The notes: generated from the letters alone by a model not told the origin. Shown: positions 9,411-31,148, counted from the stretch's first letter. The stretch: DNA of 64,000 nucleotides from Candidatus Deferrimicrobiaceae bacterium (GCA_963792415.1 CAWBVY010000001.1:343900-407899); one strand, 5' to 3'. Numbers and translations are program-made.

Positions 9411-9430
9411 AAACCAAATAATAGATACTA

Positions 9431-9824: not shown

Positions 9825-9843
9825 ATGAATTAAAGGAGGAAAG

Positions 9844-10855: not shown

Positions 10856-10878
10856 GATTCACCGCAGAAAGAACAAAT

Positions 10879-11232
10879 TTCACCACAGAGGCACAGAGGG
10901 CACAGAGATATTTCCTTTTTTTCATTGTCGGTGTGAGAGGCCGACAAGCAAAAGACAACTCACTGCAATAAATACTGAATATTGTAGATCTGCGTTTATT
11001 ACTGGATTATAGTACATAGGGTATGAAAACAACTGATTGTAAGGGTCGCAAATGAACTCCCTGTGACTCATGAGTGGAAAAACATAACTTCTTCGTCTCC
11101 GTGCCTCAGCGACGGATCTTCATTTGCCGGTCCTCTCACGGCAAATGAATATAATCAAATTCTCAGTGATCTCAGTGCCTCTGTGGTTAAAAACATCATT
11201 AAAGCTTGCGCTCTCTGTGCCTCTGTGGTGAA
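10879..11232. repeat. Family A element plus an extra right arm directly upstream of GxxExxY
   Basis: ttcaccacagaggcacagagggcacagaga; loops gtgagaggcc / gtcctctcac; tctcagtgatctcagtgcctctgtggtt; ctctctgtgcctctgtggtgaa. Confidence 0.85.
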
Positions 11233-11240
11233 TAATATTA

Positions 11241-11611
11241 ATGGACATCAATCAGCTAACCAGCAAGATCATCGGTGCGGCAATAGAGGTTCACAAAACA
11301 ATTGGTCCTGGTTTGTTAGAGGGGATATACGAAGACTGTTTATGCATTGAGTTAGAAAGGCGAGGAATTCCTTTTGAGCGGCAGAAAAGGATTGATATCG
11401 AATATAAAGGAGTAAAATTAAATAATCAATATCGACTTGACCTTGTTGTCAATAACATGGCTGTAGTTGAACTAAAACCGTAGATGAACTCGCACCAATT
11501 CATGATGCTCAGGTATTGACCTATCTCAAATTAACGGGCTTAAAGGTTGGTTTGCTCATCAATTTTAATACTGCAATACTTAAGGACGGTATAAAGCGTT
11601 TGATAATGTAG
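11241..11611 (+). CDS. GxxExxY protein (PD-(D/E)XK nuclease-like), frameshift in an A-run near 11475
   Basis: [22 protein letters not shown]...YRLDLVV...VELK, continuing [31 protein letters not shown]...KDGIKRLIM*. Confidence 0.9.
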
Positions 11612-11631
11612 AGTCAAGAGGTGATCATTAC

Positions 11632-11929
11632 TTTTGCCCTATCGCCGTCTCCCGATAGGACAAAAAACAAAATATCTCTCAGTGTCCTCAGTGTCGCTGT
11701 GGTAAATAAATAGCATCTTTTCTTAATTTTTCCAGTGCTTAAAGAAGGTATAAAACGACCTGTACCGTAGATTTACGAATTGCCGGAATTTCATCGACAT
11801 AGCCTGCCGCAGGCATGAGTGTGTTTCATTTGCCGGTATCCTCGCCCCGTAGCTCCAGCAGATGGTACCGGGGTTCCGGCAAATGAAATAAATATATCCT
11901 CTTTGCTCACTCTGCGCCTCTGTGGTAAA
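11632..11929 (+). repeat. Two tandem family A right ends (hairpin B + right arm)
   Basis: ttttgccctatcgccgtctcccgataggacaaaa + ctctcagtgtcctcagtgtcgctgtggtaaa; hairpin with a 33-bp insert + ctctgcgcctctgtggtaaa. Confidence 0.8.
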
Positions 11930-11935
11930 TAAATA

Positions 11936-12405
11936 ATGAAAAAAATAGCACCAGATGTCATCCTTGGCAAAGACGTCCAACTGAACGAATTCATCAACCT
12001 TTACGGCTGCACCATCGGCGACGGCACCAAGATCGGCCCCTTCGTCGAAATCCAAAAAAACGCCTCCATCGGCAAGAACTGCAAGATCCAGAGCCACACC
12101 TTCATCTGCGAGGGCGTCACCATCGAGGACGAGGTCTTCGTCGGTCACGGCGTCATGTTCATCAACGACAAATACCCCAAGGCCACCACCGACAGCGGCG
12201 GCCTGCAGACCGAAGCCGACTGGCAGGTCGTTCCCACGGTCGTCAAAACCAGAGCTTCTCTCGGCTCCAACGCCACCATCCTCTGCGGCGTCACCATCGG
12301 CGAAGGACGCCGTCGATCGGCGCCGGCAGCGTCGTCACCAAAGATGTACCGGCCAACACAGTAGTCGCAGGAAATCCAGCGTGCGTTTTGAAAAAACGCG
12401 GTTAA
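11936..12405 (+). CDS. Hexapeptide-repeat sugar N-acetyltransferase (WbpD/WxcM-like), frameshift near 12305
   Basis: NLYGCTIGDGTKIGPFVEIQ, CKIQSHTFICEGV, FINDKYP, ...VVAGNPA. Confidence 0.88.
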
Positions 12406-12609
12406 TGAGTTTATTGTGTTAATTGAGTGTAAAACAAGTGATTGAAATGGAAAAAAACGGCGCTCAGTCTCCTTGCAGTTCCCAATACATTAGTGTATGG
12501 TTATCATGCGCTATGGATTAGGAGATGATGAATGAAGCCGCACGTTCCTAACAAACATAACCAATAAAACTGATAAAACCAATTCAAAAAAACGAATTGT
12601 GTTATCTTA

Positions 12610-12767
12610 TATAACCCATATTCCGGAAAACTTTTTGAAAAACATTTCATTACAGTTTGTTAGGCGTCTCATTTTATGGGCTACAATTCTGGTGACGAAA
12701 TCGTAAACCCCCATCAATTGTGCCGCTATAACGTTTTTGAAAATTATTTTCCGGATTAGGGGCTATA
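12610..12767. mobile_element. Possible ~160 bp MITE with ~38-bp imperfect terminal inverted repeats
   Basis: tataacccatattccggaaaactttttgaaaaacatt versus the reverse complement of 12730-12767, tatagcccctaatccggaaaataattttcaaaaacgtt. Confidence 0.5.
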
Positions 12768-12919
12768 ACCAAAATTTTCTTAGAAAATGAAAATTATATA
12801 CGATCAAGAAACCGACACCATGTTCTTGCCAACAATGTTTTCGTGAAATATTCGAGCAGACAGGGTTTGACCGTAAATTGTTTTAAATTATCCACAGGTA
12901 AAATCTTGGAGAAGGAAAA

Positions 12920-13096
12920 ATGAGAGGTATCCAATATGTAGTGGATGATTCCGGCCGGAAGAAGGCTGTTATCATCGACCTGGAAGAATGGGGAGAGTTG
13001 TGGGAAGATTTCTCTGACATACTCGTCTCCGAAACGCGACGAGAAGAGCCGGTTGTACGGTGGGAAAAGCTAAAAGCCGAAACAATGAAAAAATAG
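12920..13096 (+). CDS. Putative antitoxin (58 aa, not in the ORF track)
   Basis: RBS gaagga; MRGIQYVVDDSGRKKAVIIDLEEWGELWEDFSDILVSETRREEPVVRWEKLKAETMKK; directly upstream of RelE. Confidence 0.7.
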   Translation: MRGIQYVVDDSGRKKAVIIDLEEWGELWEDFSDILVSETRREEPVVRWEKLKAETMKK

Positions 13097-13109
13097 ATCC
13101 AAAGCATCG

Positions 13110-13364
13110 ATGTATAAAATTGAATTATTGAAATCTGCAGCGAAAGAGTTTCGTGATCTGGATGATACAACAAAGAGGCGAATCACTGAAAAAATAGATA
13201 AACTGATTGAGGAACCTCGCCCTAGAGGAGTACGAAAGCTTAGAGGGCATAAAAGTCTATATAGGATTCGCGTTGGATCTTTCAGGATCGTTTATGATAT
13301 TAATGAGGAAATAGAATTGATTCAAGTAACCAGGATCAGACATCGAAGTGAAGTATATAAATAG
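13110..13364 (+). CDS. relE: RelE/ParE family toxin
   Basis: AAKEFRDL...PRPRGVRKLRG...YRIRVGSFRIVYDI...IRHRSEVY. Confidence 0.9.
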   Translation: MYKIELLKSAAKEFRDLDDTTKRRITEKIDKLIEEPRPRGVRKLRGHKSLYRIRVGSFRIVYDINEEIELIQVTRIRHRSEVYK

Positions 13365-13506
13365 GAAGAGTTTGCTATCATTTTTACCCATTGGTGCTCC
13401 GGACAAAAAAACCCATTTAATCCTGCCTGCCCTGTTAAATCATTACCATTTAACCGGGGTAGCCCCTGCAGACGGTACTGGGGTCAACGATAAATAGAAA
13501 AAATGT

Positions 13507-13692
13507 TTTTATTCACCTGACTTGGAAGGGTTTTCTGGAATAGGCGACTCTATAGAGGATTGCCGGTTTAAAGCTAAGTGGGGTATGAAGGAACTTGTTG
13601 AATTACTAAAAGAACAGGGTCTTTTCGTTCCTTTAAAAAATCCAGATCCTAAAATTATAATTCAAAACGAAAAGAAATTGGCTGTAGAGTGA
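13507..13692 (+). pseudogene. 5'-truncated HicB-like antitoxin fragment
   Basis: FYSPDLEGFSGIGDSIEDCRFKAKWGMKELVELLKEQGLFVP...*; no start codon; begins just after a repeat. Confidence 0.55.
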
Positions 13693-13742
13693 TCTTGTAT
13701 TGACGATAATGAATGTGAAGACATTGAATTAGAAGTTATTTT

Positions 13743-13828
13743 TTCGCCTCAGGCGATTGGATTTTTTAACTTTCGTCCGGAAAGTTAAAAACAAAAAGAA
13801 TCCTAAAAATCCAGTAAATCCTGTCCAA
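13743..13828 (+). repeat. Family B right end
   Basis: ttcgcctcaggcgattg; hairpin ttttaactttcgtccggaaagttaaaa; aatcctaaaaatccagtaaatcctgtccaa. Confidence 0.75.
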
Positions 13829-13890
13829 TAAATTCATTTCTGTGTTTTATACATTGGTTGACTGTCGTAGCATATTGAGGAGGAAACCAT

Positions 13891-14154
13891 ATGCTTATTG
13901 AATATGTCAATAAAGCAATGAGTAAGGCGGTGTACGATAAGATGGATGATGGCACTTTTAATGGAAAGATACCGCAGTGCCCCGGCGTTGTCGCCTTTGG
14001 AGAATCACTATATCAGTGCGAGCAAGAGTTGAGATCCTCTCTTGAAGGATGGTTAATTGTCAAAATAAGACATGGCGATAAACTTCCGGTGATTGGAAAA
14101 ATAAACTTAAACAAAAAAATGCCGGATATTCGAGGGGCTACCGTGAATGGCTAA
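13891..14154 (+). CDS. hicB: HicB family antitoxin
   Basis: MLIEYVNKAMSKAVYDKMDDGTFNGKIPQCPGVVAFGESLYQCEQELRSSLEGW; strong RBS. Confidence 0.85.
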   Translation: MLIEYVNKAMSKAVYDKMDDGTFNGKIPQCPGVVAFGESLYQCEQELRSSLEGWLIVKIRHGDKLPVIGKINLNKKMPDIRGATVNG

Positions 14155-14377
14155 ATGGAGGCCTTGCAAACGAAGGGATTTCATAAAAAAGCTTAAGAAG
14201 CTCGGTTTCGGCTCACCTGAACCGGGCGGCCGCCATTTTTATATGCGTTATGGTTCATATACATTTACGCTACCAAGCAACAAGGAATTCTCTGTTCAGC
14301 AAGTCAAAATGCTCATAGATGAGATTGAACATGGGATAGGGAAGAATATTTCAATTGAAGAGTGGGAAAAGCTATAG
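14147..14377 (+). CDS. hicA: HicA family toxin
   Basis: PCKRRDFIKKLKKLGFGSPEPGGRHFYMRYG; overlaps the hicB stop. Confidence 0.85.
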   Translation: MAKWRPCKRRDFIKKLKKLGFGSPEPGGRHFYMRYGSYTFTLPSNKEFSVQQVKMLIDEIEHGIGKNISIEEWEKL

Positions 14378-14516
14378 CATAGAAAGAACTTGCGCTTTAT
14401 GAGGTATTAAAGCACTAACCGATTCTCTTGATGCGCCTTACCTGCGACCTCTTTTACCGTCATGTCGGATGGCCGGATTGGCAAGTTGAGTGTTTAATGT
14501 GTTTCTCGTTTTTGCT

Positions 14517-14849
14517 TTTTTTAGAGCGACAAAGTCGCGTTTCATAAATTTTTCGCCAGAAAAATCTATTTGCGCCTTTTACCTTTCTCCATTAACCTTT
14601 TACCAGTAATTACAAATAAACTCTATCAACCTTCAGCCCGTTAAATTTGCGTAAGCAATAGTGCAACGAATTTAACTGGGCCAATAAATTTAGCCTGTGA
14701 AATTTACGATAGTAACAGTGCAACGCATTTCACTGGGCATAAATAACTCAAAAAACGCAATAAACTCTATAAACTATTACCAATGACTCCTTTACTTTTT
14801 TGAGAGCGGCAAGGCCGCGTTTCATAAATTTTTCACAGAAAAATTTATT
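14517..14849 (+). repeat. Two family F copies flanking two ccgttaaat/ctgtgaaat hairpin micro-elements and AATAAACTC-type repeats
   Basis: 14517-14570 and 14797-14849 match the F consensus; 14635-14682 and 14692-14738 are gcc(c/t)gt(t/g)aaat...attt(a/c)actgggc. Confidence 0.7.
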
Positions 14850-14914
14850 TAAAATCAATTAATCAAGGTTTTGACCCTAAAATCAATAAGACGAGATAAA
14901 AAAAAGGAAAAAAT

Positions 14915-15145
14915 ATGAATGGCTTTATAGTTGTCGATCCGAAAATTTGCTCGGTAAAACCGGTTATCAAGGGCACGTGAATCATGGTGAAAAACATCCT
15001 TGGCATGGTGGCTGGCGGATATTCAGCGGATAGAATTTTGGAGGCTTATCCTGAACTGACACGTGAAATGGTTCAAGCGGCATTGGAATATGCTGCCATC
15101 GTAATTGACGAAGAGCAAGTTATTGGTACGATTGCCTCATCATAA
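14915..15145 (+). pseudogene. DUF433 antitoxin-like gene with an in-frame stop
   Basis: MNGFIVVDPKICSVKPVIKGT*IMVKNILGMVAGGYSADRILEAYPELTREMVQAALEYAA; TGA in place of the conserved Arg of GTR. Confidence 0.8.
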
Positions 15146-15224
15146 TCGATAATAACAAAATTCTTGAAAGAAAAATTAAGCGGCTTTAGCGTACCGGCCA
15201 GCAGAAGAATCCATAAACCAACTC

Positions 15225-15330
15225 TGCCTCAGGTGGATGGACAATTTCAGTTTCTTCAGGAAACTGAAAATATATATTAATCCATTTAATCCCATGGATC
15301 CTGTCTAATTGATAATATAAATCGAATCCA
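15225..15330 (+). repeat. Family B right end
   Basis: Hairpin tttcagtttcttcaggaaactgaaa; aatccatttaatcccatggatcctgtctaa; aaatcgaatcca. Confidence 0.7.
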
Positions 15331-15351
15331 AACCTTGTTAATCAATAACAT

Positions 15352-15647
15352 ATTTTCTATACGACGACATGGAAGTCAGTGAAAAGATAAAGGTGTATGA
15401 CAAAAGCGTTCAGGTAAATGGACCGGAAAAGGTGCACGAAACTCTCATTTCCTATCGGCTGGGCGACATGTGGGCAACGGAACTCGACAACACGAAGGAC
15501 CTCCGACTCGTAGCCACTGAATTCATCGACTCGATTCAATCAGGCCGGAACCCGATCAACGATGGAATCAGTGGCCTAAAGGTTGTTAAAATATTGGAGG
15601 CTTTGGAGATGTCGATCAAACGCAAAGGCCGCGAGGTAAAATTGTAA
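15352..15647 (+). pseudogene. C-terminal fragment of a second Gfo/Idh/MocA oxidoreductase
   Basis: LYDDMEVSEKIKVYD...YRLGDMWA...GLKVVKILEA aligns to the C-terminus of the 9844-10855 protein. Confidence 0.8.
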
Positions 15648-15769
15648 TGGCCGGAGTGCCACGGAACCGCCTTTGAAATTGTTGCCGAGAGGAGATTCTT
15701 AATAAGTTTTCCACTTTTTATTTGCACTTATTTGAGTTAAGATCAAATTATAAATCTTTTCTATAGTCA

Positions 15770-16480
15770 ATGGTAGACAAAGTGGGTCACAACCAAAAAA
15801 TCGTCAATGCATTTCACAGCCGAAAAGAGATTGTAGAGGACCCTGAATTTGAAATCAAACTCAGCCAATCTCTTAAAAACCAGTACAGCCGAGAAGGTCT
15901 GATTGAACTGTACGGGCGTTTTGCAGACGGAGAAGGGTATGTCGATACCCTTATGAGGCGCGCCATCTGGCGTGCTGCGGCACACCGCTTCGGCAGCGGC
16001 ATCCATATCGGGAGCGGCACGGGATTCAAGCACATCGAAACCTTTGAGATTGGAGACGGTGTTTTCATCGGGTCCCAGTCGTATATTCAGGGCAGAATCG
16101 GAGGGAAATGCACGATTGGCAGAAAGACCTGGATCGGGCCGCAGAGTTATTTCGATGCCCGTGATCTGGTGATTGGAGATCACGTCGGATGGGGACCCGG
16201 TGCAAAGGTTCTGGGGTCGGCTCACGTCGGCATTCCGGTTGATATTCCCATCATTCAGACAGATCTGGAAATCAAACCGGTGACGATCGAGCCGTGGGCG
16301 GATATCGGGGTCAATGCGGTGATACTTCCCGGAGTGACAATCGGCAAGGGCAGCCAGGTCGGCGCCGGTGCCGTGGTAACCGCCGACGTTCCCCCGTTCG
16401 CTGTTGTTGCCGGGGTTCCTGCGAAATTTATCAGGTGGCGGAAAGGAGACGATGGTAAACATCATGGAACTGAGAAATAG
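15770..16480 (+). CDS. Hexapeptide-repeat acyltransferase
   Basis: Left-handed beta-helix repeats, ILPGVTIGKGSQVGAGAVVTADVPPFAVVAGVPA. Confidence 0.88.
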   Translation: MVDKVGHNQKIVNAFHSRKEIVEDPEFEIKLSQSLKNQYSREGLIELYGRFADGEGYVDTLMRRAIWRAAAHRFGSGIHIGSGTGFKHIETFEIGDGVFIGSQSYIQGRIGGKCTIGRKTWIGPQSYFDARDLVIGDHVGWGPGAKVLGSAHVGIPVDIPIIQTDLEIKPVTIEPWADIGVNAVILPGVTIGKGSQVGAGAVVTADVPPFAVVAGVPAKFIRWRKGDDGKHHGTEK

Positions 16481-17476
16481 GAGAGCATTGATAACGGGAG
16501 GCGCGGGGCTGGTCGGGTCGCATATTGCCGATCTTCTGGTCGAAGAAGGGGTTTCCGAGATCGTTGTTTTCGATAATTTTGATCGCGGCGGCGGGAAAAT
16601 CTGGCCTGGGCCATCGAAAACGGTCCGGTCACCATCATCGAGGGGGATATCCGCGACAGAGAATTGCTGGCCCGTTCAATGCAGGGAATCGACGTGCTGT
16701 TTCACCAGGCCGCCATCAGGATCACGCAGTGCGCCCAGGAACCGCGACTGGCACTCGAAGTACTGGTTGACGGTTCCTACAATGTCGTCGAAGCCGCCTT
16801 AAATGCCAAAGTCGAGAAGGTCGTCGCCGCCTCCTCCGCATCCGTCTACGGAGCCGCCGAAGATTTCCCCACCACGGAAAAACACCACTCTTACAACAAC
16901 CGGACAATATACGGTGCGGCGAAAGTCTTTAACGAATCTTTACTGAGAAGTTTCAATGAAATGTACGGTCTCGATTATGTCGCCCTGCGGTATTTCAACA
17001 TATACGGACCGCGAATGGACGCTTTTGGCGTCTACACCGAGGTGTTTATTCGCTGGATGGAGGCCATCGAGGCGGGAAAGGCACCCATGATTTTCGGGGA
17101 CGGAACCCAGACCATGGACTTCATTCATGTAAAGGATATCGCCAGGTCCAACATTCTCGCGGCGAAGTCGGCTGTGACCGACGATGTCATCAACATTGCC
17201 AGCGGTGAGGAGACCAGCCTGACCCAGCTCGCCGAGACGCTGCTGAAAGTGATGAAAAGTGATTTGCGGCCGGAATATGGTCCCGTAAGAAAGGTCAACA
17301 ACGTTCAACGCAGGCTCGCCTATACCGACAAGGCCAGAGAACTGCTGGGCTTTGAGACAACCATATCCCTGGAGGAAGGGTTGGCCGGCATGGTGGATTG
17401 GTGGCGCGAAGTAACCGCCAATCATAAAATGGCGGATCAATCGAAGGGGCAAGAACTTAGGCAGGCTGCAAACTAA
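16452..17476 (+). CDS. NAD-dependent epimerase/dehydratase, frameshift near 16590
   Basis: ITGGAGLVGSH, ASSASVYG, YGAAK, LRYFNIYGPR. Confidence 0.9.
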
Positions 17477-17488
17477 GCATAAAATCGC

Positions 17489-18295
17489 GTGCGATTTTAT
17501 AAGGCCATCATACCGGCGGCCGGTTTAGGGGAACGGTTGCACCCGGTTACCCAGGTGTTACCCAAAGAGATGTTTCCGGTTGGACGCCACCCGGCGATCG
17601 AATGGGTGATCGCAGAGGCCGTGGCCGGTGGCTGCCGGGAAATAGCGGTCGTCATCAGCCCCCGCAAGCAGGTTATACGGGAATACCTCACCAAATACTG
17701 CAGCATCGCCTCGTCACTTTGCGAACTGACGTTTATTATCCAATCCGAGCCTTTGGGTTTGGGGCATGCCCTGCTGCTGGCGAAGGAATTCGCCGACGGG
17801 CAGCCGGTTGCCGTTTTGCTGCCGGATGAGCTGACTGCCGGAACCCAGCTGCCGATTCTGCAACTCAACGAAGCATTTACAGACCTTGGGTGGTGCTGTT
17901 TTTGCCCTGGGGTCGGCGGAGTCTGCCGCCAACCCCGAGCTGGTCGGAGCGGTGGCATCTGACAAAAGTCGACAGCCGAATCTATAAGGTGCAGCCGTCT
18001 CGAGCCGGCGCATCATCGGAAAAAAGACCGGACCAATTCGCGGGAATGGGGCGCTATATCCTCTCACCCGAGTGCCTCGATGACGCGGCCTCCCTGTTCA
18101 ATGAAAGACCCCACGCGCGGCCTCGACGACGGAATGATCTTCGAGTTCATGTGTACCGCCGACAAACCCGTTCACGGTTATGTCTTCGAAGGCCGGCGTT
18201 TCGATATTTCAACGGTCGCCGGCTACATAGACGCCTGGCAGACCCTGGGAAATTCGGACCCCCTTAGCCTTTTTCCTCAAATCCCGGCTATTTGA
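17489..18295 (+). CDS. Sugar-1-phosphate nucleotidyltransferase (GalU-like), frameshifted
   Basis: AIIPAAGLGERLHPVT..PKEM, QSEPLGLGHA, GRYIL, RFDIST. Confidence 0.82.
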
Positions 18296-18311
18296 AACTC
18301 AGGTGTATATT

Positions 18312-18656
18312 ATTCACCGCTAGAGGCACAGAGGCCCGCCTGCCTTTCCTGCAGTGAGCCGGATGAAGCTAAAATGTATTACACATGTGGACTACTGACA
18401 AACTTTATGTTGGATAGTCCCCAACGATGAATGATTGGAACATATAAGATCTGTCGGCTGACGTTGATAAGTTGATTTCACAGTATATTCATAACCTCGG
18501 CCGCAGGGATAGAGTTCTTTTGTTCAATCGATCTTTCCCGATTGAATAAAAACTGAAATACTTACTCTTGCGACCTCTGTGCCTCGCAGCAGAGCGGGTG
18601 GTTAAAAATTCAAAACATCATGTGACCTCTGTGTCTCGAGCGAAGCGGGCGGTGAG
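18312..18656. repeat. Degenerate family A element with two right arms
   Basis: attcaccgctagaggcacagag; hairpin ttgttcaatcg..cgattgaata; ctctgtgcctcgcagcagagcgggtggt; ctctgtgtctcgagcgaagcgggcggtg. Confidence 0.75.
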
Positions 18657-18895
18657 CTCATTTCTAAACATGAAAGCGTACTCACAAAAAACAACCACCA
18701 TCAAGCGCTTTTAACCCGATTTATGCCCATCCACGGTTTCCTGCTATTTCTTTTCTCCACAGAACTATTACCTCGATGTAACAGCCCAATTAAGTGTAGT
18801 TCATTGTAAAACAAACCCCAACCATATAACTATCCAATTATTATCAAATTTTCCGTTAGCCTGTATTCCCGCGCAATTTTCCACTCATTCGTTAA

Positions 18896-18911
18896 CGGCA
18901 TCTAAATTGCT
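18896..18911 (+). promoter_or_regulatory. Putative sigma-54 (-24/-12) promoter
   Basis: cGGCATctaaaTTGCt (GG-N10-GC), ~105 bp upstream of the giant secreted protein gene. Confidence 0.55.
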
Positions 18912-19016
18912 GTTATTAATTGTTCTGTATCTATGACCTGCGACGAACAACATCCCCAGGATTTATTCTTTACCGTTTCGAAGGACCCTGGTGGGACCAC
19001 TAAAAGAAGGTGCGCT

Positions 19017-22000
19017 ATGAATCGGATGAACGGATTGATTCGGCATCTCTGCTTTTTCGTCCATCATCGCTTTATCCTTCTTGTTTTTCCTGAATTCCGG
19101 GGCATCCGCGAGTTCCATATGGGATGATACATTCATCCCGACGATTCTGTCCGATTCGGATACGAGTGCGGTGGAGCTGGGGGTCAAGTTTCAGAGCGAT
19201 GTCGACGGGTACATCACGGGTCTGCGGTTCTACAAGTCTGCGGCGAACACCGGCACGCACGTGGGCAACCTGTGGACGGCCGGCGGCACATTGCTGGCCA
19301 GCGTGACCTTCACCAACGAAACCGCCTCCGGTTGGCAGGAGATGGCCCTGCCCACTCCGGTGGCCATCACGGCCAACACGACCTATGTCGCCTCCTATCA
19401 CACCAACGTGGGACGCTACTCGGCCGATTCGGCCTACTTCACTTCCGCCTATGACAATCCGCCTCTGCGGGCGCCGTCCAACGGTGAGAGCGGCGGCAAC
19501 GGTGTCTACCTTTACGGTGCCGGTGGGTTTCCGAATCAGACCTGGAATGCCACCAACTACTGGGTCGATGTGGTGTTTCAGGAGAGCTGGGGCCGGACAC
19601 GACCCCGCCCACGGTGATCTCAACCCTGCCGGTCAGTGACGCTGTTAATGTGAGCATTAACGCATCTGTTACGGTCGACCTTCAACGAGGCGATGGACCC
19701 GGCGACGATCAACGAGAGCACCTTCGAGCTGCGGGATGCTGCGGATGCGCCGGTGGCCGCTGTGGTCTCCTATGACAGCGGCACGAACACGGCCACGCTT
19801 GACCCCCTCTGCCCCGCTGGCCAATTCTGAGACTTATACGGCCAGTGTGCTGGGCGATACCGGCGGTGTGACGGATTTGGCCGGCAATGCCTTGGCCGCC
19901 ACCTATACATGGTCTTTCACCACCGCTGCTGCCGGCACATCCGGTTCTTACAGCTTGTGGGACGATACCTTCATCCCGACGATTCTGGCCGATTCGGATA
20001 CGAGTGCGGTGGAGCTGGGGGTCAAGTTTCAGAGCGATCTCGACGGGTACATCACGGCCCTGCGCTTCTACAAGTCCGCGACCAATACCGGCACGCACGT
20101 GGGCAACCTGTGGACCGCCGCCGGCACGTTGCTTTCCAGCGTGACCTTCACCAACGAGACCGCCTCCGGGTGGCAGGAAATGGCCCTGCCCACTCCGGTG
20201 GCCATCACGGCCGGTACGACCTATATGGCCTCTTACCACGCTCCGGTGGGGCGCTACTCGGCCGACTCGGCCTACTTCACCTCCGCATACGACAATCCGC
20301 CTCTGACGGCGCCGTCCAGCAGCGCGAGCGGCGGCAACGGGGTGTATCGCTACGGGGCCAGCGCCTTCCCCAACCAGACCTACAATGCCACCAACTACTG
20401 GGTTGATGTGGTGTTTCAGGAGAACCTGGAGCCGGACACGACGCCGCCCAACGTGAGTTCGGTTTCTCCAACCGATGGCGCAACCGACGTTGCAACCGAT
20501 GGGGTCGTCACGGCGACCTTCAGCGAGGAAATGGATCCCGCCACGATCGGCGGGAGCACCTTCGAGCTGCGGGATGCTGCGGATGCGCCGGTGGCCGCTG
20601 TAATCTCCTATGACAGCGGCACAAGCACGGCCACGTTGACCCCCTCTGCCCCGCTGGCCAACTCTGAGACATACACGGCCAGTGTGCTGGGTGGTACCGG
20701 CGGTGTGACGGATTTGGCCGGCAATGCCTTGGCCGCCACCTCCACGTGGTCATTCACCACCGCTGCGCCCTCAGGTGATACGACGCCGCCAACGGTAACA
20801 GCGGTGCTGCCCCTTGACGGTGCAACTGACGTGGCCACCAGCACGGTCGTCACGGCGACCTTCAGCGAGGAAATGGATCCCACCACGATCGGCGGGAGCA
20901 CCTTCGAGCTGCGGGATGCTGCGGATGCGCCGGTGGCCGCTGTAATCTCCTATGACAGCGGCACAAGCACGGCCACGTTGACCCCCTCTGCCCCGCTGGC
21001 CAACTCTGAGACATACACGGCCAGTGTGCTGGGCGGTACCGGCGGTGTGACGGATTTGGCCGGCAATCTCTTGGCCGCCACCTCCACGTGGTCATTCACC
21101 ACCGCTGCGCCTTCAGGTGATACGACGCCGCCAACAGTAACAGCGGTGCTGCCCCTTGACGGTGCAACTGACGTGGCCACCAGCACGGTCGTCACGGCGA
21201 CCTTCAGCGAGGAAATGGATCCCGCCACGATCGGCGGGAGCACCTTCGAGCTGCGGGATGCTGCGGATGCGCCGGTGGCCGCTGTAATCTCCTATGACAG
21301 CGGCACAAGCACGGCCACGTTGACCCCCTCTGCCCCGCTGGCCAACTCTGAGACATACACGGCCAGTGTGCTGGGTGGTACCGGCGGTGTGACGGATTTG
21401 GCCGGCAATGCCTTGGCCGCCACCTCCACGTGGTCATTCACCACCGCTGCGCTCTTCAGGCGATACGACGCCGCCAACAGTAACAGCGTTGCTACCCCTC
21501 GACGGTGCAACTGACGTGGCCACCAGCACGGTCGTCACGGCGACCTTCAGCGGGCAATGGATCCGCCACGATCGGCGGGAGCACCTTCGAGCTGCGGATG
21601 CTGCGGATGCGCCGGTGGCCGCTGTAATCTCCTATGACAGCGGTACGAGCTACGGCCACGCTGACCCCCTCTGCCCCGCTGGCCAACTCTGAGACATCCA
21701 CGGCCAGTCGTGCTGGGCGACCGGCGGCTGGTCGGCGACGCCCCGACTTCCTACACCTTCGCGACAGCCGGCAGCAAGACCCTGTATGCCTGGGCCAAGG
21801 ACGCCGCCGGCAACGTGTCGGCGAGTCGGAGCGCTTCCGTTACCATTACCCTCCCGTCGGCGGGCCCGGAGCCGGCCGGCTGGTATGCGGGCGACATGCA
21901 TGTGCACAGGAGCTGCGGTGGATGCCCCGATACGATATGGGCACCATGCTGCGATACCATGGACGCCGCAGAATTTGGCCGTCATATCGCTGCTGGCCGA

Positions 22001-25000
22001 TATGGGCAATGGCGAGGTCCAGGACCCCGTTACGGATTTGCCGCTCGTGAACGGGCAGGACGACCCCGTATCGACGCCCGATCGGATCGTGCACTGGGAT
22101 GCCGAGTGGCACTGGGATGCGACCTATACTCAGTTCCCGCACCAGGCCCTGGGCGGGCATATTGTGGCTTTGGGGCTGACGGAGGCGCATCAGATCTGGG
22201 AAGAATACACGTATCCGATTTTCGAGTGGGCGCATCAGCAGGACGGCATCGCCGGGTTTGCGCACATGCAGTACCTGGATGACGGCATTCCGCAGAGCCT
22301 CGACTGCTGCAAGCCCATCGAATATCCGGTCGAAGTGGCCTTGGGGTCGGCCGATTTCATATCGGAGGATGTCAACGGCAGCGATTCCTTCATTCGGGCC
22401 TATTACCGCCTGCTCAACACCGGCTTTCGGCCCGGTTTCGCGGCCGGTTCGGACTTTCCCTGCGGCCAAGATGTGGGCGCTCTCCTGACCTATGTCCAGG
22501 TCGCGGGCGGCGAGATGACTTACCGCAACTGGATCGACGGCATTGCCCAGGGACGAACGGTCGTATCGCGCAACGGGCACAACGAATTTCTGAACCTGAC
22601 GGTCAACGGCAGCGCGACACCGGGGGATGAGATCAACTTGACCGGCGGCGGCAGTGTGCCGGTGACGATTCAGTGGACCGCGAATCAGAACCTGTCCGGG
22701 ACGATCGAGCTGGTAAAAAACGGCGTCGTCGTGGCCAGTGTGTCAAGAATCCGTTGCACCGGGCGCTCCGGCGAGTTTGAACACAACCGTGGATTTTACA
22801 AGCAGCGGCTGGCTGGCGGCGCGGCGGATGGACGGCAACGGCCATCAGGTGCACACGGCCGCCGTGTTCGTGACGGTCGACGGTGCGCCGGTGCGGGCGA
22901 GCGTCGCCGATGCCGAGTTTTACGTGCAGTGGATGGACAACCTGTTGGCAAAGACGTCGCCGGGCGGGGACTGGAACTCGTTTTTCCCGACCAGCCTGGC
23001 AGAAGCGCAAGCGCGGTACCAGGCAGGCAAGAGATATATTTCAGCAGATTGCCATGGAAGCCGGCGGCGGTGATCAACCACCCACGGTGATCTCGGTTTC
23101 ACCGGCCGGCAGGTGCGACGAATGTGAACACCGGAACGGCTGTCACGGTGACCTTCAGCGAGCCGATGGACCCGGCGACAATCAATGGGACAACCTTCGA
23201 ACTGATGAATCCTTCGAGTCAACTGGTACCGGCCGCGGTCGCCTACAACGGGCCTACGAACACGGCCACGCTGACCCCCGCGGCCCCGCTGGCCAACTCG
23301 ACGACTTACACGGCCAGGGTGGTGGGCGGAGCCGCCGGTGTGACCGATGTGACCGGCAATCCGCTGGCGACCGATTACACGTGGTCTTTCACCACCGCGG
23401 CGGCCGGTTCATCCGACTCCGCCAGCCTGTGGGATGATACCTTCATTCCGACGATTCTGTCCGATTCGGACACCAATGCGGTGGAGCTGGGCGTCAAGTT
23501 TCAGAGCGATGTCGACGGGTACATCACGGCCCTGCGCTTTTACAAGTCCGCGACCAACACCGGCACGCACGTGGGCAACCTGTGGACCGCCGGCGGCACG
23601 CTGCTCGCCAGCGTGACCTTCACCAACGAGACCGCCTCCGGGTGGCAGGAGATGGCCCTGCCCACTCCGGTGGCCATCACGGCCAACACGACCTATATCG
23701 CCTCTTACCACACCAACGTAGGGCGCTATTCGGCCGACTCGGCCTACTTCGCTTCCGCTTACGACAATCCGCCGCTGACGGGCGCTGGCCGACGGCGAGA
23801 GCGGCGGCAACGGCGTTTACCGCTACGGCGCGGCCGGCGGCTTTCCCAACCAGACCTGGAATGCCACCAACTACTGGGTCGATGTGGTGTTTCAGGAGAA
23901 TATAGGACCACCCGACACCACACCGCCGACGGTGACATCGGTTTTTCCGGCGGATGGGGCGACCGAGGTCAGCCCGACGGCCGCCGTCAGTGCCGTCTTC
24001 AGCGAGGCCATGGATCCGGCCACGATAAACGGGAGCAGCTTCGTGCTGCGCGACGCCGCCAATAATGTGGTGTCGGCCACCGTCGGCTACAGCGCCGGAT
24101 CCAAAACGGCCACCCTGTCGCCTGCTGCCCCCTCGAGTCCGGCGAAACGTACACTGCGACTGTATTGGGCGATGTCGATGGCGTGGCCGATCTGGCCGGA
24201 AATCCGCTGGATATGGATTATATTTGGTCGTTCACCACCACGGCAGCACACGGGAGACACGACCCCGCCGACGGTCATAGCGGTGCAGCCGGCGGACGGA
24301 GCCGTCGGGTGTCGAGCATCGCGACCGTCGTGACGGCGACGTTCAGCGAGGCGATGAATCCGGCAACCATCGGCGGAACCACCTTTGAACTGCAGGAGAC
24401 CGGTGGCGGGACCTGTACCCGCTGTCGTCGCCTACAACAGCGCCACCAACACGGCCACCCTGACACCGGATAGTCCCTTGTCGAACAACACGACCTACAC
24501 GGCGGTCGTCAGCGGGGGTCCGGGCGGTGTCAGCGATCTGGCCGGCAATGAGCTGGCGTCCGATGACAGCTGGTCGTTTACCACCGCGGTATCCTCCGAC
24601 ACGACGCCGCCGGTCGTCAGTTCGACCTCGCCGGCCGACGGCGCCACGGGCGTGAGCATCGGGACCCAGGTTGTCGCGATCTTCAGCGAGGCGATGGATC
24701 CGGCCACGATCACCACCACGACCTTCACGCTGAACGGCGTTGCCGCCGCGGTCGCCTACAACGACACCACGAACACGGCCACGCTGACCCCCGCGGCTCC
24801 GCTGGCCAACGCGACGACCTACACGGCCACGGTGGTAGGGCGGCACCAGCCGGGGTGAAGGACGCCGCCGGCAATCCGCTGACGGCCGATTACAGCTGGT
24901 CTTTCACCACCGCATCGTCTTCGGGCGGCGATACGACACCGCCCACGGTGACGGCCGTGCTGCCGCCCAACGATGCGCCCGCGGTCAGCACCGGAACGCG

Positions 25001-28000
25001 TCTCACGGTCACTTTCAGCGAGGCGATGATGGCGGCGACCATCAACACCGGGACCATCGAGCTGCGGAATGCCTCGGGCGCTCCTGGTGTCGGCCGCCGT
25101 CACCTATGACGGCGCAGCCAACCGGGCGACCGTTGACCCCCAACAGTCCCCTGGCGGTTTCTTCGGCCTATACAGCCATCGTCAAGGGCGGTGTCCGGCG
25201 GCGTGAAAGATGCGGCCGGAAATCCGTTAGGCCGCCGATTACGGCTGGGGATTCGTCAGCAGCGCGTCCAATCCGTTCGGCAATGGTCCCGGCGGACCGA
25301 TTCTGGTCGTCACCTCCGCCTCCAGCCCCTTCAGCCGCTATTACGCCGAGATTCTGCGGGCCGAAGGGCTGAACGCCTTCGCCCTGCAGCGACCTGTCAT
25401 CTGTCACGGCGACGATTCTCGACCAGTACGATGTCGTCGATCCTGGGGGAGATGCCGCTGACATCGACCCAGGTGACCATGTTCACCAACTGGGTCACCG
25501 CCGGCGGCAACCTGATCGCCATGCGGCCGGACAAGCAGCTGGCCGGGCTGCTCGGGTTGACCGACTCTCGGGACGACCCTGTCGGAAGGCTACCTGCTGG
25601 TCGACACGTCCTCCGATCCGGGGGCCGGCATCGTCGGGCAGACGATCCAGTTCCACGGCACGGCCGACCGCTACACCCTGGAGAGCGCCGCCGCCCTGGC
25701 AACGCTCTATTCGACGGCCACCACCGCGACCGCGAACCCGGCCGTCACCTTGCGCAGCGTGGGGTCGAACGGCGGGCAGGCCGCCGCCTTCACCTTCGAC
25801 CTGGCGCGCTCCATCGTCTACACCCGCCAGGGCAACCCGGCCTGGGTCGGACAGGAGCGCGACGGGATATCGCCGATCCGCTCCGATGATCTTTTCTACG
25901 GCAATGCGCCGGCGACTCCAGCCCGACTGGATCGATCTGAACAAGGTGGCCATTCCGCAGGCGGACGAGCAGCAGCGGCTGCTGGCCAACATGATCATCC
26001 GGATGAACGCCGACAAAAAGCCGCTGCCGCGGTTCTGGTACTTCCCGAACGACCATGAGGCGGTGGTCATCATGACCGGCGACGATCATGGCCATGACGG
26101 GACCGCCGGGCGCTTCAACGCCGAGATCATCAGCAGTCCTCCGGGCTGCTCGGTCGACGACTGGGAGTGCATCCGCAGCTCTTCCTACATCTATCCCGAT
26201 CCGGACGGTGCGGTGACCGACGCCGAGGCGGCGGCCTACGATGCCCACGGCTTTGAAATCGGCCTTCACGTCAACACCTTCTGCGCCGACTACACGGCCG
26301 GTATGCTCGAGACCTATTTCAGCGATCAGATGGGGGCCTGGTATGGCGTTGTTTCCGAGCCTGGCCCCGCCGGTCAGTCATCGGCAGCACTGCATCGCCT
26401 GGAGCGGTTACACGGTTCTGCCGGAGGAAGAGGCGAAATACGGCATCCGCCTGGATGTGAACTACTACTACTGGCCCCCGGACTGGATTGCAAACCGGCC
26501 GGGTTTCTTCACCGGCTCCGGCATGCCGATGCGGTTTGCGGCCCTGAACGGCACCCTCATCGATGTCTACCAGGCCACCACCCAGATGACCGACGAATCC
26601 GGGCAGACCTATCCCTACACGATAAACACGCTGCTCGACCGGGCCATCGGGCCCGAGAAGTACTACGGGGTCTTTACCGCCAACATGCACACCGATTATG
26701 CGACTCTCCGGTGATTACGATGCCCTCATCGCCTCGGCCCAGGCGCGGGGCGTGCCGGTGATTTCCGCGCGGCAGATGCTCAAATGGCTCGACGGGCGCA
26801 ACGGGTCGTCCTTCGGCTCGATCGCCTGGAACGGCACGCGTTCTCAGTTTCACGGTTTCAGCGCGGGCAGGGGGCCAACGGTCTGCAGGCGATGGTGCCG
26901 CTTGCGCCGGGGGTTACGGTGACGAACATCACCCGCAACGGCAGCGCGATCGGTTATGTGATCAAAGAGGTCAAAGGCATCAGTTATGCCGTATTTTCCG
27001 CCTCGGCCGGTTCCTATGCGGTAACGATGGCTGCCGATGTGACGCCGCCCACGGTCATCGACAATACGCCGTCGGATGGTGCGGTCGACGTGAGCACAGG
27101 GACGGCAGTGACGGTTACCTTCAGCGAGCCCATGGATGCGGCAACGGTCGAACCAGACGACCTTTGAGTTGCGCGATTCTTCGAATGCTCCAGTGTCTGC
27201 CGCTGTCTCGTACAACACCGGCACGAACACGGCAACGTTGACATCCGAACTCAAGGTTGAGCGCAGCGAAGACCTATACGGCGACCTTGCTTGGTGATGC
27301 CGGAGGGGCGGCCGACTTTAGCCGGGAACCCGCTTGCCGTTGACTACGCTTGGTCGTTTACCACCGCTGCTGCTGGAACTTCGGTTTCCTACAGCTTATG
27401 GGACGATGCAACTGATACCGTCGATTCTTGAGGACCCGGACCGAACCGCCCAGTCTCAGGGAATTGAGCTGGGCGTCAAGTTTCAGAGTGTGACGGATGG
27501 CTACATCACCGGGCTGCGGTTTTACAAGGGACCGAACAACACCGGCACCCACGTGGGCAATCTGTGGACGGCCGGCGGCACGTTGCTGGCCAGTGTGACC
27601 TTCACCAACGAGACGGCCTCGGGTGGCAGGAGATGGTTCTGCCGGCACCGGTGGCGATCACGGCCGACACGACCTACGTGGCCTCCTATCATGCGCCTGT
27701 GGGGCGTTATTCGGCCAATTCGGGTATTTCACGGCACGGGATTTCGACAATCCGCCGCTGCGGGCACTGGCGGATGGTGAAGATGGCGGCAACGGCGTTT
27801 ACCGCTATGGCGCCAGCGCGTTTCCGAACCTGACATATCAAGGCGAAAACTACTGGGTGGATGTGGTGTTTCAGGAGAGCTGGGGCCGGATACGACGCCG
27901 CCCACAGTGACACGCGACCGTGCCGGCAGCCGGTGCCGTCAATGTGAATCCTGCCGCGGTTGTCACGGTGACCTTCAGCGAGGCGATGGATGCGGCAACG

Positions 28001-28725
28001 ATCGACGACAACCACTTTTGAGCTGATGGATGCCGGCAGCATGCCTGTACCCGCCGTTGTCACTTACAACGGTTCAACTCGGACGGCGACCCTGATCCCG
28101 GCTGCGGCGCTGGCAAACACGGCGACCTACACGGCCGTTGTCAGGGGAGGGGCTGTTGGTGTGACCGATGCGGCCGGCAACCCGTTGGTCGCCAATCACA
28201 GCTGGTCGTTCACCACTGCTGCCGCTGGGACATCGGTTTCCTACAGCTTGTGGGACAATACGTTCACCCCGGCAATTCTGTCCGATTCGGATACCAGTGC
28301 GGTGGAGCTGGGGGTAAAGTTTCAGAGCAATGTCAACGGGTACATCACGGCCCTGCGGTTCTACAAGGCTGCAGCGAATACCGGCACGCACGTGGGCAAC
28401 CTGTGGACCGCCAGCGGCACGTTGTTGGCCAGTGTGACCTTCACCAACGAGACCGCCTCAGGGTGGCAGGAGATGGCACTGCCGTCACCGGTGGCGATAA
28501 CCGCCAACACGACCTACATAGCCTCCTACCACACCACCGTGGGGCGCTACTCGGCCAATTCGGCCTACTTCACTTCCGCCTATGACAATTCCCCGTTGCG
28601 GGCGCCGTCCAGCAGCGCGAGCGGCGGCAACGGCGTGTACCGGTACGGCGCAGCCAGCGCGTTTCCCCACCGACACTTGGAATGCAAGCAACTACTGGGT
28701 CGACGTGGTGTTTCAGGAGCAATGA
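19017..28725 (+). CDS. Giant secreted protein (~3,200 aa when reassembled): 5 DUF4082, ~12 Big_5/SbsA Ig-like domains, a CehA/McbA-like PHP metallohydrolase and a polysaccharide-deacetylase-like domain; many frameshifts
   Basis: Signal-like N-terminus; repeated VELGVKFQSD..GYITALRFYK..NYWVDVVF; repeated DTTPPTV..ATFSE.MDPATI..WSFTT; WYAGDMHVH (~21880); VIMTGDDHG and GFEIGLHV (~26060-26270). Confidence 0.82.
20501..21715 (+). repeat. Near-identical 342-bp tandem repeats encoding Big_5 domains
   Basis: tcagg(t/c)gatacgacgccgcc recurs at 20771, 21113 and 21456. Confidence 0.9.
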
Positions 28726-28746
28726 AATTGAATGTTCAATATCGGG

Positions 28747-29325
28747 CTCACCGCAGAGGCGCTAAGGATGCAGAGAATTTTGGATTTTTTGCTTTTCGCT
28801 GAGACGCCGAAAAGCAAAAAGCAACTTGCCCTTCGAATACAAGTGTCGACAAAAGAGTTATCAATTTAATTGGAAATAATAGATCACTTTAGATAATATC
28901 AGTCGGGATTATTCGCCAAAGGCGACAGCGTTTTTATGTTTTCCAGCGTCCCTGTCTTGTTGAATGAAAAGCAAATTCAACTGGGACCAGCGGAAAACAT
29001 AAAGAAGAATAAGCTCTGCGCTCTCTGGGTCTCTGCGGTGAATAATAAATATGTTGAGTCATACAGCCGATCCGTCTCCGGCAAACATAAAGGGCAATCC
29101 GCATTAAATGCGATAATTTCACGCCAAATTTCTAAAACTTAAAAGTTGTCACGAGCTTTAACCTCTTAGCACACAGAAGAAAGATAGAGATGCATGCAGT
29201 TTTGATTTCCTTTATCGTCCACTCAACGATAAAGGAAAAAAATATTTAAACTCTGCGCCCTCTGCGTCTCGAGCGAAGCCCCGGTGAAATGGCTTTCTGA
29301 TTTCACAGGGTAGGCGGGCGGTGAA
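28747..29325. repeat. Family A element (28747-29042) plus a tandem right end (29207-29325)
   Basis: ctcaccgcagaggcgctaaggatgcagaga; loop cgctgagacgc; ctctgcgctctctgggtctctgcggtgaa; ctctgcgccctctgcgtctcgagcgaagc[36 bp]gggcggtgaa. Confidence 0.85.
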
Positions 29326-29333
29326 TTCCTAAA

Positions 29334-29729
29334 ATGGACATCAATCAACTAACCAGTAAAATCATAGGCGCAGCAATTGAAGTTCATAAACATCTCGGTC
29401 CAGGACTCTTGGAATCGGCTTATGAAGAATGCCTTTGCCATGAATTAGAATTGCGCAGAATCAGATTCGATAGGCAGAAACCATTACCGATAGAATACAA
29501 AGGACGGAAGCTTGACTGTGGCTACAGACTCGATGTCCTGGTAGAGGATAAGGTTGTTTTAGAATTGAAATCCTGTGAAAAAATTGAACCTATCCACAAG
29601 GCACAGTTGCTGACATATCTCAAACTATCGAATATAAATTTAGGCTTACTGTTGAATTTCAATAGCATAACAATGAAAGAAGGAATAGTGCGCATCGCAA
29701 ATGAACTTCCCGATCGACAGGTAAATTAG
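29334..29729 (+). CDS. GxxExxY protein (PD-(D/E)XK nuclease-like), intact
   Basis: [25 protein letters not shown]...[18 protein letters not shown]...[10 protein letters not shown]...GLLLNFN. Confidence 0.93.
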
Positions 29730-29743
29730 TAGAGATTAAATCG

Positions 29744-29827
29744 TTTTCATTTCCGACCTCTCAACGGAAATGAAAATAATAAAACTACTCTGCGCTCTCT
29801 GCGCCTCGAGCGAAGCGGGCGGTGAAA
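29744..29827 (+). repeat. Family A right end directly downstream of GxxExxY
   Basis: ttttcatttccgacctctcaacggaaatgaaaa + ctctgcgctctctgcgcctcgagcgaagcgggcggtgaaa. Confidence 0.85.
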
Positions 29828-31062: not shown

Positions 31063-31148
31063 TTCACCACCCGCTTCGCTCGAGACGCAGAGTGCGCAGA
31101 GAAAAGAATATTCATTTTCCTTTGCCGTTGAGAGGACGGCAAAGGAAA
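31063..31148 (-). repeat. Family A left end immediately after the aminotransferase stop codon
   Basis: ttcaccacccgcttcgctcgagacgcagagtgcgcagaga is the reverse complement of the long right arm; hairpin loop gttgagaggac. Confidence 0.85.

Follow-up and report, generated by a model that had tools for sequence, protein, structure and literature searches.

Repetitive extragenic palindromic (REP) sequences and REPINs are short intergenic palindromic repeats in alternating orientation, and the small nuclease gene that accompanies them, which codes for the HUH tyrosine enzyme RAYT and is usually single-copy, is flanked by inverted copies of a repeat whose sequence is specific to the lineage; no target duplication is made. 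IS200/IS605 elements have subterminal hairpins on one strand at both ends, lack inverted repeats and use the Y1 enzyme TnpA. Free-standing homing endonuclease genes target one cognate locus, where the enzyme cleaves the empty allele and repair copies the gene into it, and are without terminal inverted repeats, and the homing enzyme I-Ssp6803I is of the PD-(D/E)XK type. Intervening sequences of 23S rRNA genes that carry an open reading frame (ORF) lie inside a transcription unit, have inverted repeats and specify a four-helix-bundle protein. Here we describe a discrete inverted-repeat element that has GxxExxY, a PD-(D/E)XK-like nuclease family, as its gene, that also exists as gene-less derivatives, and that is dispersed to unrelated gene junctions across phyla. 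It was recognized in a 64,000 nt stretch of DNA (the window) from Candidatus Deferrimicrobiaceae bacterium (GCA_963792415.1 CAWBVY010000001.1:343900-407899), which contains two GxxExxY genes within a polysaccharide-biosynthesis locus of strongly mosaic G+C content.

The element has an arm of short tandem repeats at each end and a hairpin just inside each arm. As in insertion sequences and miniature inverted-repeat transposable elements, known as MITEs, the terminal inverted repeats have sharp ends, there are many copies in unrelated contexts, and a gene-bearing form is accompanied by commoner gene-less forms that differ from it by a clean internal deletion. Unlike those, it shows no target-site duplication, its only ORF specifies a PD-(D/E)XK nuclease of about 125 aa and not a DDE, DEDD, HUH, serine or tyrosine enzyme, and it has tandem-heptamer arms, a covarying subterminal hairpin and a strong preference for the sense orientation between operon genes. 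With REP/RAYT systems it shares short palindromic repeats that alternate in orientation between genes, a dedicated small nuclease gene, inverted flanking repeats, the absence of target duplication and lineage-specific repeats, but its enzyme is of the PD-(D/E)XK type and it is multi-copy. It also differs from IS200/IS605 elements, since its hairpins are inverted at the two ends, together with inverted arms, and a scan of 79 window ORFs detected no Y1 transposase domain, the flanked gene matching PF13366. Like homing endonuclease genes, a small nuclease ORF is placed precisely between genes, co-oriented and without target duplication, and filled and empty forms of one junction are seen in related species (here two of Sphingomonas), but the element occupies many unrelated junctions and brings its own arms along. 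A small ORF bounded by inverted repeats in a transcription unit is likewise a feature of the 23S rRNA intervening sequences, from which the element differs by its protein family.

The nearest described repeat found in the literature searched is Chunjie, a MITE of Geobacter uraniireducens, an inverted-repeat element reported to fold stably and to have inserted in an operon without disrupting it (PMC3184786, PMC10969869); compared by that description only, it differs in having 21-bp inverted repeats, 9-bp direct repeats and no coding capacity. Searches for GxxExxY, PF13366/PDDEXK_3 and TIGR04256 gave only listings or a table row with function unknown (subscription journals and supplements were outside the scope), and four 12-base arm strings retrieved only unrelated primers. 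The architecture of the element is apparently undescribed in the literature searched.

Both window genes are members of the GxxExxY family (TIGR04256/PF13366 PDDEXK_3), with scores above the curated cut-off. The second gene (positions 29334..29729, + strand, stop codon 29727-29729) is intact and codes for 131 aa, with matches to PF13366 (E 3.3e-46) and TIGR04256 (159.2 bits, cut-off 35). The first (11241..11611, + strand, stop codon 11609-11611) is split at a 1-nt frameshift near 11480 into ORFs 11241-11483 and 11483-11611; its matches to PF13366 have E-values of 9.1e-28 (profile positions 2-76) and 2.8e-11 (80-117), the first fragment scores 99 bits with TIGR04256 (cut-off 35), and the motif reads GLLEGIY. 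Many other genes of the window are also frame-broken, for example that for the GFO_IDH oxidoreductase (9844-10855), which is found in two overlapping ORFs, so the frameshift in the first gene could be an assembly indel. The coding sequence of a very large repeat protein (Big_5/DUF4082; tandem units of 342 nt; 19081-28802) is in pieces, with at least 10 ORFs. The breaks across the window reflect either assembly indels or wholesale decay.

A first-pass annotation, made from the window sequence, had placed the two genes in a PD-(D/E)XK-like family and described their proteins as nearly identical at the N-terminus and divergent thereafter, and both statements hold. Residues 1-19 are identical and 76 of 119 aligned residues are shared overall; the DNA specifying the 19 residues differs at 9 of 57 positions, and since every change is synonymous, the common N-terminus reflects family-wide protein conservation and not a DNA repeat. 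Residues E37, D67, E77 and K79, along with G24, E27 and Y30 of the G-x-x-E-x-x-Y motif close to the N-terminus, are invariant in 56 sequences, including the protein of the second gene. The first four match the PD-(D/E)XK signature and fit an active site, an assignment that draws on the known motif. Sequence searches of solved structures, with the single protein and with a profile, found no relative in the PDB up to E 10. The family is very large, with 24,293 representatives (clusters at 50% identity) at E<=0.001, of which 8,966 reach 1e-10 or better, and has members in Bacteroides of the gut, in bacteria of soil and sediment, and in methanogens. Two natural tandem fusions (P0121 and P0122, 276-293 aa) consist of two GxxExxY domains, the second without the E-x-K signature, which hints at a dimeric working unit with one active site in the fused forms.

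Alignment of the window copies of the repeat showed them to be one unit, consisting of a hairpin that is T-rich in its 5' half and A-rich in its 3' half, an A-rich stretch of about 10 bases, two or three copies of the heptamer CTCTG(C/T)G with a spacing of 1-2 nt, and a terminal GGTGAA. A profile built from 12 of these copies (nhmmer, threshold E<=0.01) detects 20 arms in the window, the 12 seeds and 8 others, of which 13 are on the + strand (right-type arms) and 7 on the - strand. Five of six hairpin-arm units in the window fold as single strands with z-scores of -3.6 to -4.7. An arm ending in GGTGAA stops at 11232 and another at 29325, in each case leaving 8 nt before the ATG of a GxxExxY gene (11241 and 29334), and the stop codons are followed after 20 nt by a hairpin (about 11631-11665) and an arm (11666-11706), and after 14 nt by a hairpin (29744-29776) and an arm ending at 29826. 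This agrees with the spacing given by the first-pass annotation, which took the genes to be cassettes between direct right ends. Such arms do flank both genes, but an inverted - arm with its own hairpin also lies upstream of each (10879-10920 and 28747-28788), and each gene is found inside an inverted envelope of about 1.05 kb (E1, 10879-11929; E2, 28747-29826) that holds extra right-end units.

The flanks of GxxExxY genes in other genomes were examined by searching the window protein against contigs representing one genome per species, which gave 538 confirmed relatives; the best 80 loci (61-78% identity) were taken. The loci amount to 1,128,715 bp, and the analysis used the 86 near-full copies among their 90 tblastn matches. 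Their sources are Thermodesulfobacteriota, Planctomycetota, Acidobacteriota, Verrucomicrobiota, Nitrospirota and others, as well as the archaea Methanothrix and Methanoperedens. The window-derived arm profile has 306 matches across the 80 loci, and a strict arm pattern finds 219 arms, compared to one in block-shuffled sequence. For counts in gene flanks a relaxed definition was used (two heptamers separated by 1-2 nt, no more than 250 nt from the gene), by which 79 of the 86 copies have an arm. Upstream, the nearest arm is on the - strand in 54 copies and on the + strand in 16 (none in 16); downstream, it is + in 48 and - in 13 (none in 23, contig edge in 2). A - arm upstream combined with a + arm downstream is seen at 47 of 86 copies, whereas none of 1079 control windows has arms on both sides and 60 have a one-sided arm. 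Up to 250 nt from the gene there are 2.12 arms per kb, and in all other sequence 0.088 per kb.

The association of GxxExxY with these arms is therefore specific and general, and the flanking motif that the first-pass annotation proposed to look for around homologues is indeed there. The usual geometry is one of inverted arms with GGTGAA pointing outward, that is, terminal inverted repeats and not direct right ends, and the direct arrangement in the window results from right-end units stacked inside an inverted envelope. More distant homologues (43-57% identity) on complete RefSeq replicons also have flanking inverted repeats in five of five cases, and in four these are tandem-heptamer arms: that of Bacteroides finegoldii lies between radA and the next gene and has the canonical TTCACCACAGAGG...GGTGAA, that of Bernardetia has tandem-heptamer arms, that of Sphingomonas parapaucimobilis is between fabD and fabG, and that of Gemmatirosa stands between two gene-less units; the Treponema homologue has a single 16-nt repeat. 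No GxxExxY match was found in the phage collection. In eight loci (L033, L028, L040, L052, L058, L077, L063 and L083), arms that abut the ORF are translated in the ORF calls, giving proteins that start with runs such as NHKDTKDTK or NHRDTE or finish in tails such as SAPPRLRG, and many database GxxExxY proteins with odd ends are probably read-through of arms.

The window by itself could suggest that the arms are a shared regulatory or ribosome-binding motif of the locus that stands beside GxxExxY by chance, as only 2 of its 13 + arms precede a GxxExxY gene and others precede polysaccharide genes, namely those for a kinase-like protein (6261), GFO_IDH (9844), a hexapeptide transferase (11936), DegT (29850) and a flippase-like protein (36169). 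This explanation is refuted by the presence of the same arms around GxxExxY in many phyla and in archaea, and by the near-identical elements in unrelated contexts described below. The arms also occur in both orientations, some facing gene ends (the - arms of the window face the 3' ends of genes), and two further decayed GxxExxY remnants adjoin window arms (35963-36040, E 0.14, and a weaker one at 11714-11767).

Consecutive arms in the order (-,+) form 85 pairs in the loci. Forty-six, at spacings up to 301 nt, are gene-less, all 35 with spacings of 369-792 nt enclose GxxExxY, and four are wider. Intervals between arms in other orientations mostly hold ordinary host genes, which fits elements inserted between host genes. 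In 44 of 62 pairs the terminal heptamer of the left arm is the same as that of the right arm, compared with 14.3 expected when partners are shuffled (maximum 23 in 1000). Conservation ends right after GGTGA(A), beyond which the 218 ends examined show no more than a weak A/T preference. Target-site duplications were sought in 61 pairs, at offsets of 0-3 and lengths of 2-9, and none was clearly above shuffled partners, which argues against DDE-type transposition. A possible direct repeat, CTTTCAG, on either side of the gene within the element was also considered, but an alignment of filled and gene-less copies of one locus did not support it.

Dispersal is evident from several comparisons. Two contigs of one assembled genome (L029 and L042) and a third genome (L001) carry the element in three unrelated contexts with 37-40 identical bases in each 40 nt, and the match breaks off precisely at the outer edge of the left arm, beyond which 8-13 of 40 bases agree; in L042 the arm starts directly after the stop codon of the upstream gene. 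In S. parapaucimobilis, an element of 437 bp from arm to arm is cleanly inserted at the fabD-fabG junction, and the same junction is empty in S. paeninsulae, where the spacer is 32 nt compared to 27 nt left around the insertion. Locus L054 has four near-identical gene-less copies in separate host-operon spacers (for example around hslV-/hslU-like genes and an ornithine-carbamoyltransferase-like gene), and alignment of its gene-less and filled copies shows a clean loss of leader and ORF between the two hairpins. The left flanks of two of the gene-less copies (L054 2650-2730 and 7400-7477) share a short tandem motif (GGTTGAGGTTAAGGCTGAGG...), possibly another repeat family abutting the arms.

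Hairpins of at least 5 bp were found within 70 nt of 179 of 272 arms, and the commonest loop, CCTCTCA, runs in the direction of the arm in 57 cases and against it in 8. Among 62 distinct hairpins, 82.1% of cells pair, compared with 60.7% when shuffled (0/500), and slid controls give 45-53%. All 13 stem pairs show changes on both sides (174 cells; 57.5 expected). The GxxExxY gene points the same way as its upstream neighbor in 62 of 68 cases, as its downstream neighbor in 58 of 71 and as both neighbors in 45 of 57. An ORF of at least 90 aa begins within 60 nt after 78 of 230 arms, most commonly at a distance of 5-24 nt and often with no other purine-rich motif between, so that the 8-nt arm-to-ATG spacing of the two window genes reflects a general feature of the arms. 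Their terminal GGTGA corresponds to the extended Shine-Dalgarno sequence, and can serve as the ribosome-binding site of the next gene, whichever gene that is.

These data bear on the idea that the repeats are RNA-level operon punctuation, in which the arms would pair once transcribed as part of a polycistronic RNA and would be cleaved by an enzyme such as RNase III, with the hairpins stabilizing the ends and GGTGA feeding ribosomes onto the next gene. The sense orientation in operons and the position of GGTGA before so many downstream starts favor it, as does the finding that the inverted arms are 81% complementary to each other, and transcripts of another inverted-repeat element (Correia) are cut by RNase III, according to a review (PMC10969869). 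However, arm-arm mismatches show no sense-strand G-U bias (39 vs 46, p 0.52), and the hairpin stems contain few G-U pairs (about 20 of 806 cells). Taken together, these two results fit a DNA constraint (on both strands, or on a cruciform) better than a single-RNA constraint, without being decisive, and an RNA function also leaves the dispersal to unrelated sites unexplained. We regard operon punctuation as an improbable account of the element, and an RNA-level role of the arms may coexist with movement driven by the nuclease or by another enzyme.

The type of repeat follows the protein lineage. When the heptamer class (GCG or GTG) is placed on a tree of 75 proteins, it changes 7 times, compared to a mean of 18.45 for shuffled labels (minimum 14 of 200), and a single class is common to clades in which several host phyla are mixed. 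Divergent paralogues found in the flanks (31-47% identity) have the same architecture in four of four cases, with other short repeats (CACAGAC, GACAGGATT, GTCTGCG and CACGAAAG). This is the co-phylogeny that the first-pass annotation had proposed to test. Since related rows share labels, the tree result shows that gene and arms travel together and not that the protein reads the arms.

On balance, we think it probable that both window genes are copies, one intact and one frameshifted, of widespread, tiny selfish DNA elements whose sole gene is the GxxExxY PD-(D/E)XK nuclease and for which this nuclease is the element's own enzyme. The complete element comprises, in order, a left arm of TTCACC and two to four tandem heptamers such as CGCAGAG, a T-rich tract and hairpin, a short leader, the GxxExxY ORF, a second hairpin (loop CCTCTCA) with an A-rich tract, and a right end of inverse heptamers (CTCTGCG) and GGTGAA. 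Such elements, of 0.44-0.65 kb, lie in spacers between co-directional genes in the sense orientation and without target duplication, leave behind gene-less derivatives of about 80-250 bp, and often have their terminal GGTGA 5-15 nt before the next gene start, where it can act as a ribosome-binding site; the polysaccharide locus of the window has gathered full, decayed and gene-less copies. The nuclease may recognize arms and hairpins as DNA and so mobilize the element, presumably by starting its copying via breakage and host recombination or repair, and not by DDE-type transposition.

The main alternative is that GxxExxY is cargo, with the arm-hairpin units being moved by an enzyme encoded elsewhere, in the host or in another element, and the nuclease riding along as an addiction, defense or toxin-like stabilizer. 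Gene-less pairs outnumber filled ones (46 to 36), some loci have the gene between two complete gene-less units, and the protein is very small. Of the four wider pairs, one holds GxxExxY and three hold other small ORFs, either of toxin-antitoxin type (DUF5615, HEPN) or unknown. Set against this, every gene-sized inverted pair holds GxxExxY, divergent protein lineages carry their own repeat types, and no recurring recombinase or transposase lies beside the elements; in the window, an integrase-like fragment and an IS110-family ORF are at least 11 kb past the last arm. Toxin-antitoxin-type genes are present in the window at 13.1-15.1 kb and have no arms. We consider the cargo explanation unlikely, though not negligible.

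Several observations count against the nuclease being the element's own enzyme. In addition to the three wider pairs with other ORFs, a minority of copies lie outside inverted pairs, with nearest arms in the orders (+,+) in 9, (-,-) in 6 and (+,-) in 2, as exemplified by L022, L024 and Gemmatirosa, and 7 of the 86 copies have no arm by the pattern used, 4 of these carrying other repeat types. The loci were picked because they hold GxxExxY, so that the census of cargo is biased, and most of the 80 come from metagenome assemblies. The covariation of repeat and protein could have arisen through shared ancestry of the element as a whole instead of through recognition, and a PD-(D/E)XK protein of about 125 aa has no separate DNA-binding or strand-transfer domain.

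Features of the two envelopes are as follows. E1 begins with the left inverted arm, TTCACC with three CACAGAG heptamers and a T-rich tract (10879..10920, - strand; nhmmer E 3.7e-13), beside a partial extra left-arm fragment (TTCACCGCAGA; 10858..10868, - strand; weak match, E 4.7), and continues with a subterminal hairpin seen in the sequence, with loop CCTCTCA on the - strand (10921..10953). The rest lies on the + strand: a hairpin (11120-11149, loop CCTCTCA) with a right-type arm ending in GGTTAA (11120..11190; E 4.7e-10, z -4.74), the right-type arm ending in GGTGAA before the first gene (11191..11232; E 1.8e-9), a hairpin with loop CCGTCTCC and right-type arm after it (11631..11706; E 2.2e-8, z -3.9), a possible decayed GxxExxY C-terminal remnant (..LKEGIKR..; 11714..11767) noted by eye and only weakly matched by the family profile (E 9), and a hairpin with a palindrome nested in its loop together with the right-type arm that closes E1 (11824..11929; E 9.3e-9), just before the hexapeptide-transferase ATG at 11936.

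E2 opens with a left inverted arm (28747..28788, - strand; nhmmer E 1e-9) and subterminal hairpin (28784..28822, - strand; z -3.57), followed on the + strand by a hairpin with a nested insert and right-type arm (28937..29043; E 6e-11), then a hairpin (loop CCACTCA) with a long-variant right arm (..CTCGAGCGAAGC..GGGCGGTGAA) that ends before the second gene (29206..29325; repeat family D15; E 5.6e-5, z -4.61) and has a 34-nt palindrome nested in it, visible in the sequence (29271-29304, + strand). A hairpin (loop CCTCTCA) and a long-variant right arm close E2 (29744..29826; E 6e-6, z -4.31), ahead of the DegT-family ATG at 29850. The long variant has CTCGAGCG(A/C)AGCGGG(C/T) inserted before GGTGAA, and occurs in the window at 5955-6005, 6170-6221, 9367-9411, 18563-18656, 29238-29325, 29779-29826, 31082-31117, 35910-35959 and 36105-36155, and also in loci L019, L021, L039 and L054. 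In its core, GCGAAGC/GCGCAGC, the middle base of the G-N-A triplet varies, which we take to be the shape of a very stable DNA mini-hairpin. Small secondary palindromes (for example CCCGGTGAAAT...ATTTCACAGGG) are nested in hairpin loops or the long arm at 29271-29304, 11853-11881 and 5715-5745, as well as in L001, L005 and L025, and look like a second layer of mini-insertions targeting hairpins.

Outside the envelopes, the profile search located arms only between 5657 and 36136 and none in the remaining 28 kb of the window. Two gene-less inverted pairs (5657..6221; D15) lie between the Wzz-like and kinase-like genes, with - arm 5657-5698 and + arm 5955-6005 in one, and - arm 6021-6061 and + arm 6170-6221 in the other. 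Two more (9138..9825) are found between a DegT fragment and GFO_IDH, with - arm 9138-9179 and + arm 9367-9411, then - arm 9428-9469 and + arm 9741-9781, and a degenerate arm extending to 9825. A degenerate - arm at 18312-18334 is followed by long-variant + arms at 18563-18606 and 18621-18656 (18312..18656; profile and D15). A long-variant - arm with hairpin is present at 31082..31148 (- strand; E 7.8e-5) and a hairpin with + arm at 33057..33129 (+ strand; E 1.6e-12). Finally, the stretch 35910..36155 (+ strand; D15) comprises a long + arm (35910-35959), the GxxExxY C-terminal remnant (35963-36040, E 0.14), and a hairpin with long + arm (36071-36155), and precedes the flippase-like ATG at 36169.

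The genes of the window include those for Wzz-like, kinase-like, DegT, GFO_IDH, hexapeptide-transferase, epimerase, flippase and glycosyltransferase proteins. Genes of toxin-antitoxin type occur at 13110-15145 and 31969-32172 (ParE, UPF0150/HicB-like with HicA-like, DUF433 and RelB-like); those at 13-15 kb are without arms around them, and the RelB-like gene (31969-32172) lies between the - arm at 31082-31117 and + arms at 32398-33129. The gene row at 54569-59562 (+ strand) is of the kind usually seen for lasso-peptide biosynthesis (NTP_transf_5, PqqD, a core of transglutaminase type and an enzyme resembling asparagine synthase), and an IS110-family transposase ORF (DEDD_Tnp_IS110 and Transposase_20) is found at 62636-63490 (- strand). 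A direct repeat of 275 nt with 95% identity (1783-2057 and 3226-3500) has its copies 1.4 kb apart. A search of the whole window against Rfam at the gathering thresholds found no family, and a scan of 28700-29900 for promoters and terminators gave three promoter-like and two terminator-like sites, a number within chance, none of them on the hairpins.

A further ORF, at 47414-47836 (- strand), specifies a 140-aa N-terminal fragment that is cut off by the adjoining glycosyltransferase gene and has an integron integrase as its best match (43 bits, cut-off 265). It is relevant to the possibility, raised as an analogy by the first-pass annotation, that the units are integron-like cassettes, each an ORF with a hairpin-arm that a tyrosine integrase would recombine at an attC-like site. 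The window ORFs are small, promoterless and followed by an imperfect palindrome, as in such cassettes, the units share one direction, and arrays in a gene-dense locus are a further common feature. The analogy nonetheless fails on the points that define such cassettes: there is no RYYYAAC..GTTRRRY site, the ends being TTCACC..GGTGAA followed by the A/T-rich stretch, the prevailing geometry is that of inverted arms around one gene, no uniform array is seen, the only integrase-like ORF is the fragment 11 kb past the last arm, and no integrase is found near the five annotated RefSeq loci. Integron-like cassettes are accordingly a very remote explanation.

With the element defined in this way, a large family of unknown function gains a concrete and testable candidate role tied to a defined DNA architecture. 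The element explains repeat-rich, mosaic polysaccharide loci, contig breaks in assemblies and spurious ORF extensions that translate arms, and the arms give annotators a simple signature for such insertions. More tentatively, and with somewhat less confidence than in the reading of the two window genes, GxxExxY proteins could be the endonucleases of an unrecognized class of minimal mobile elements across prokaryotes, which would spread by breakage and repair with a PD-(D/E)XK enzyme only and with no target duplication, seed gene-less MITE-like repeats and donate ribosome-binding sites in operons. If the nuclease drives the movement, DNA mobility would gain a new enzymatic route, and the elements would be among the smallest autonomous ones known.

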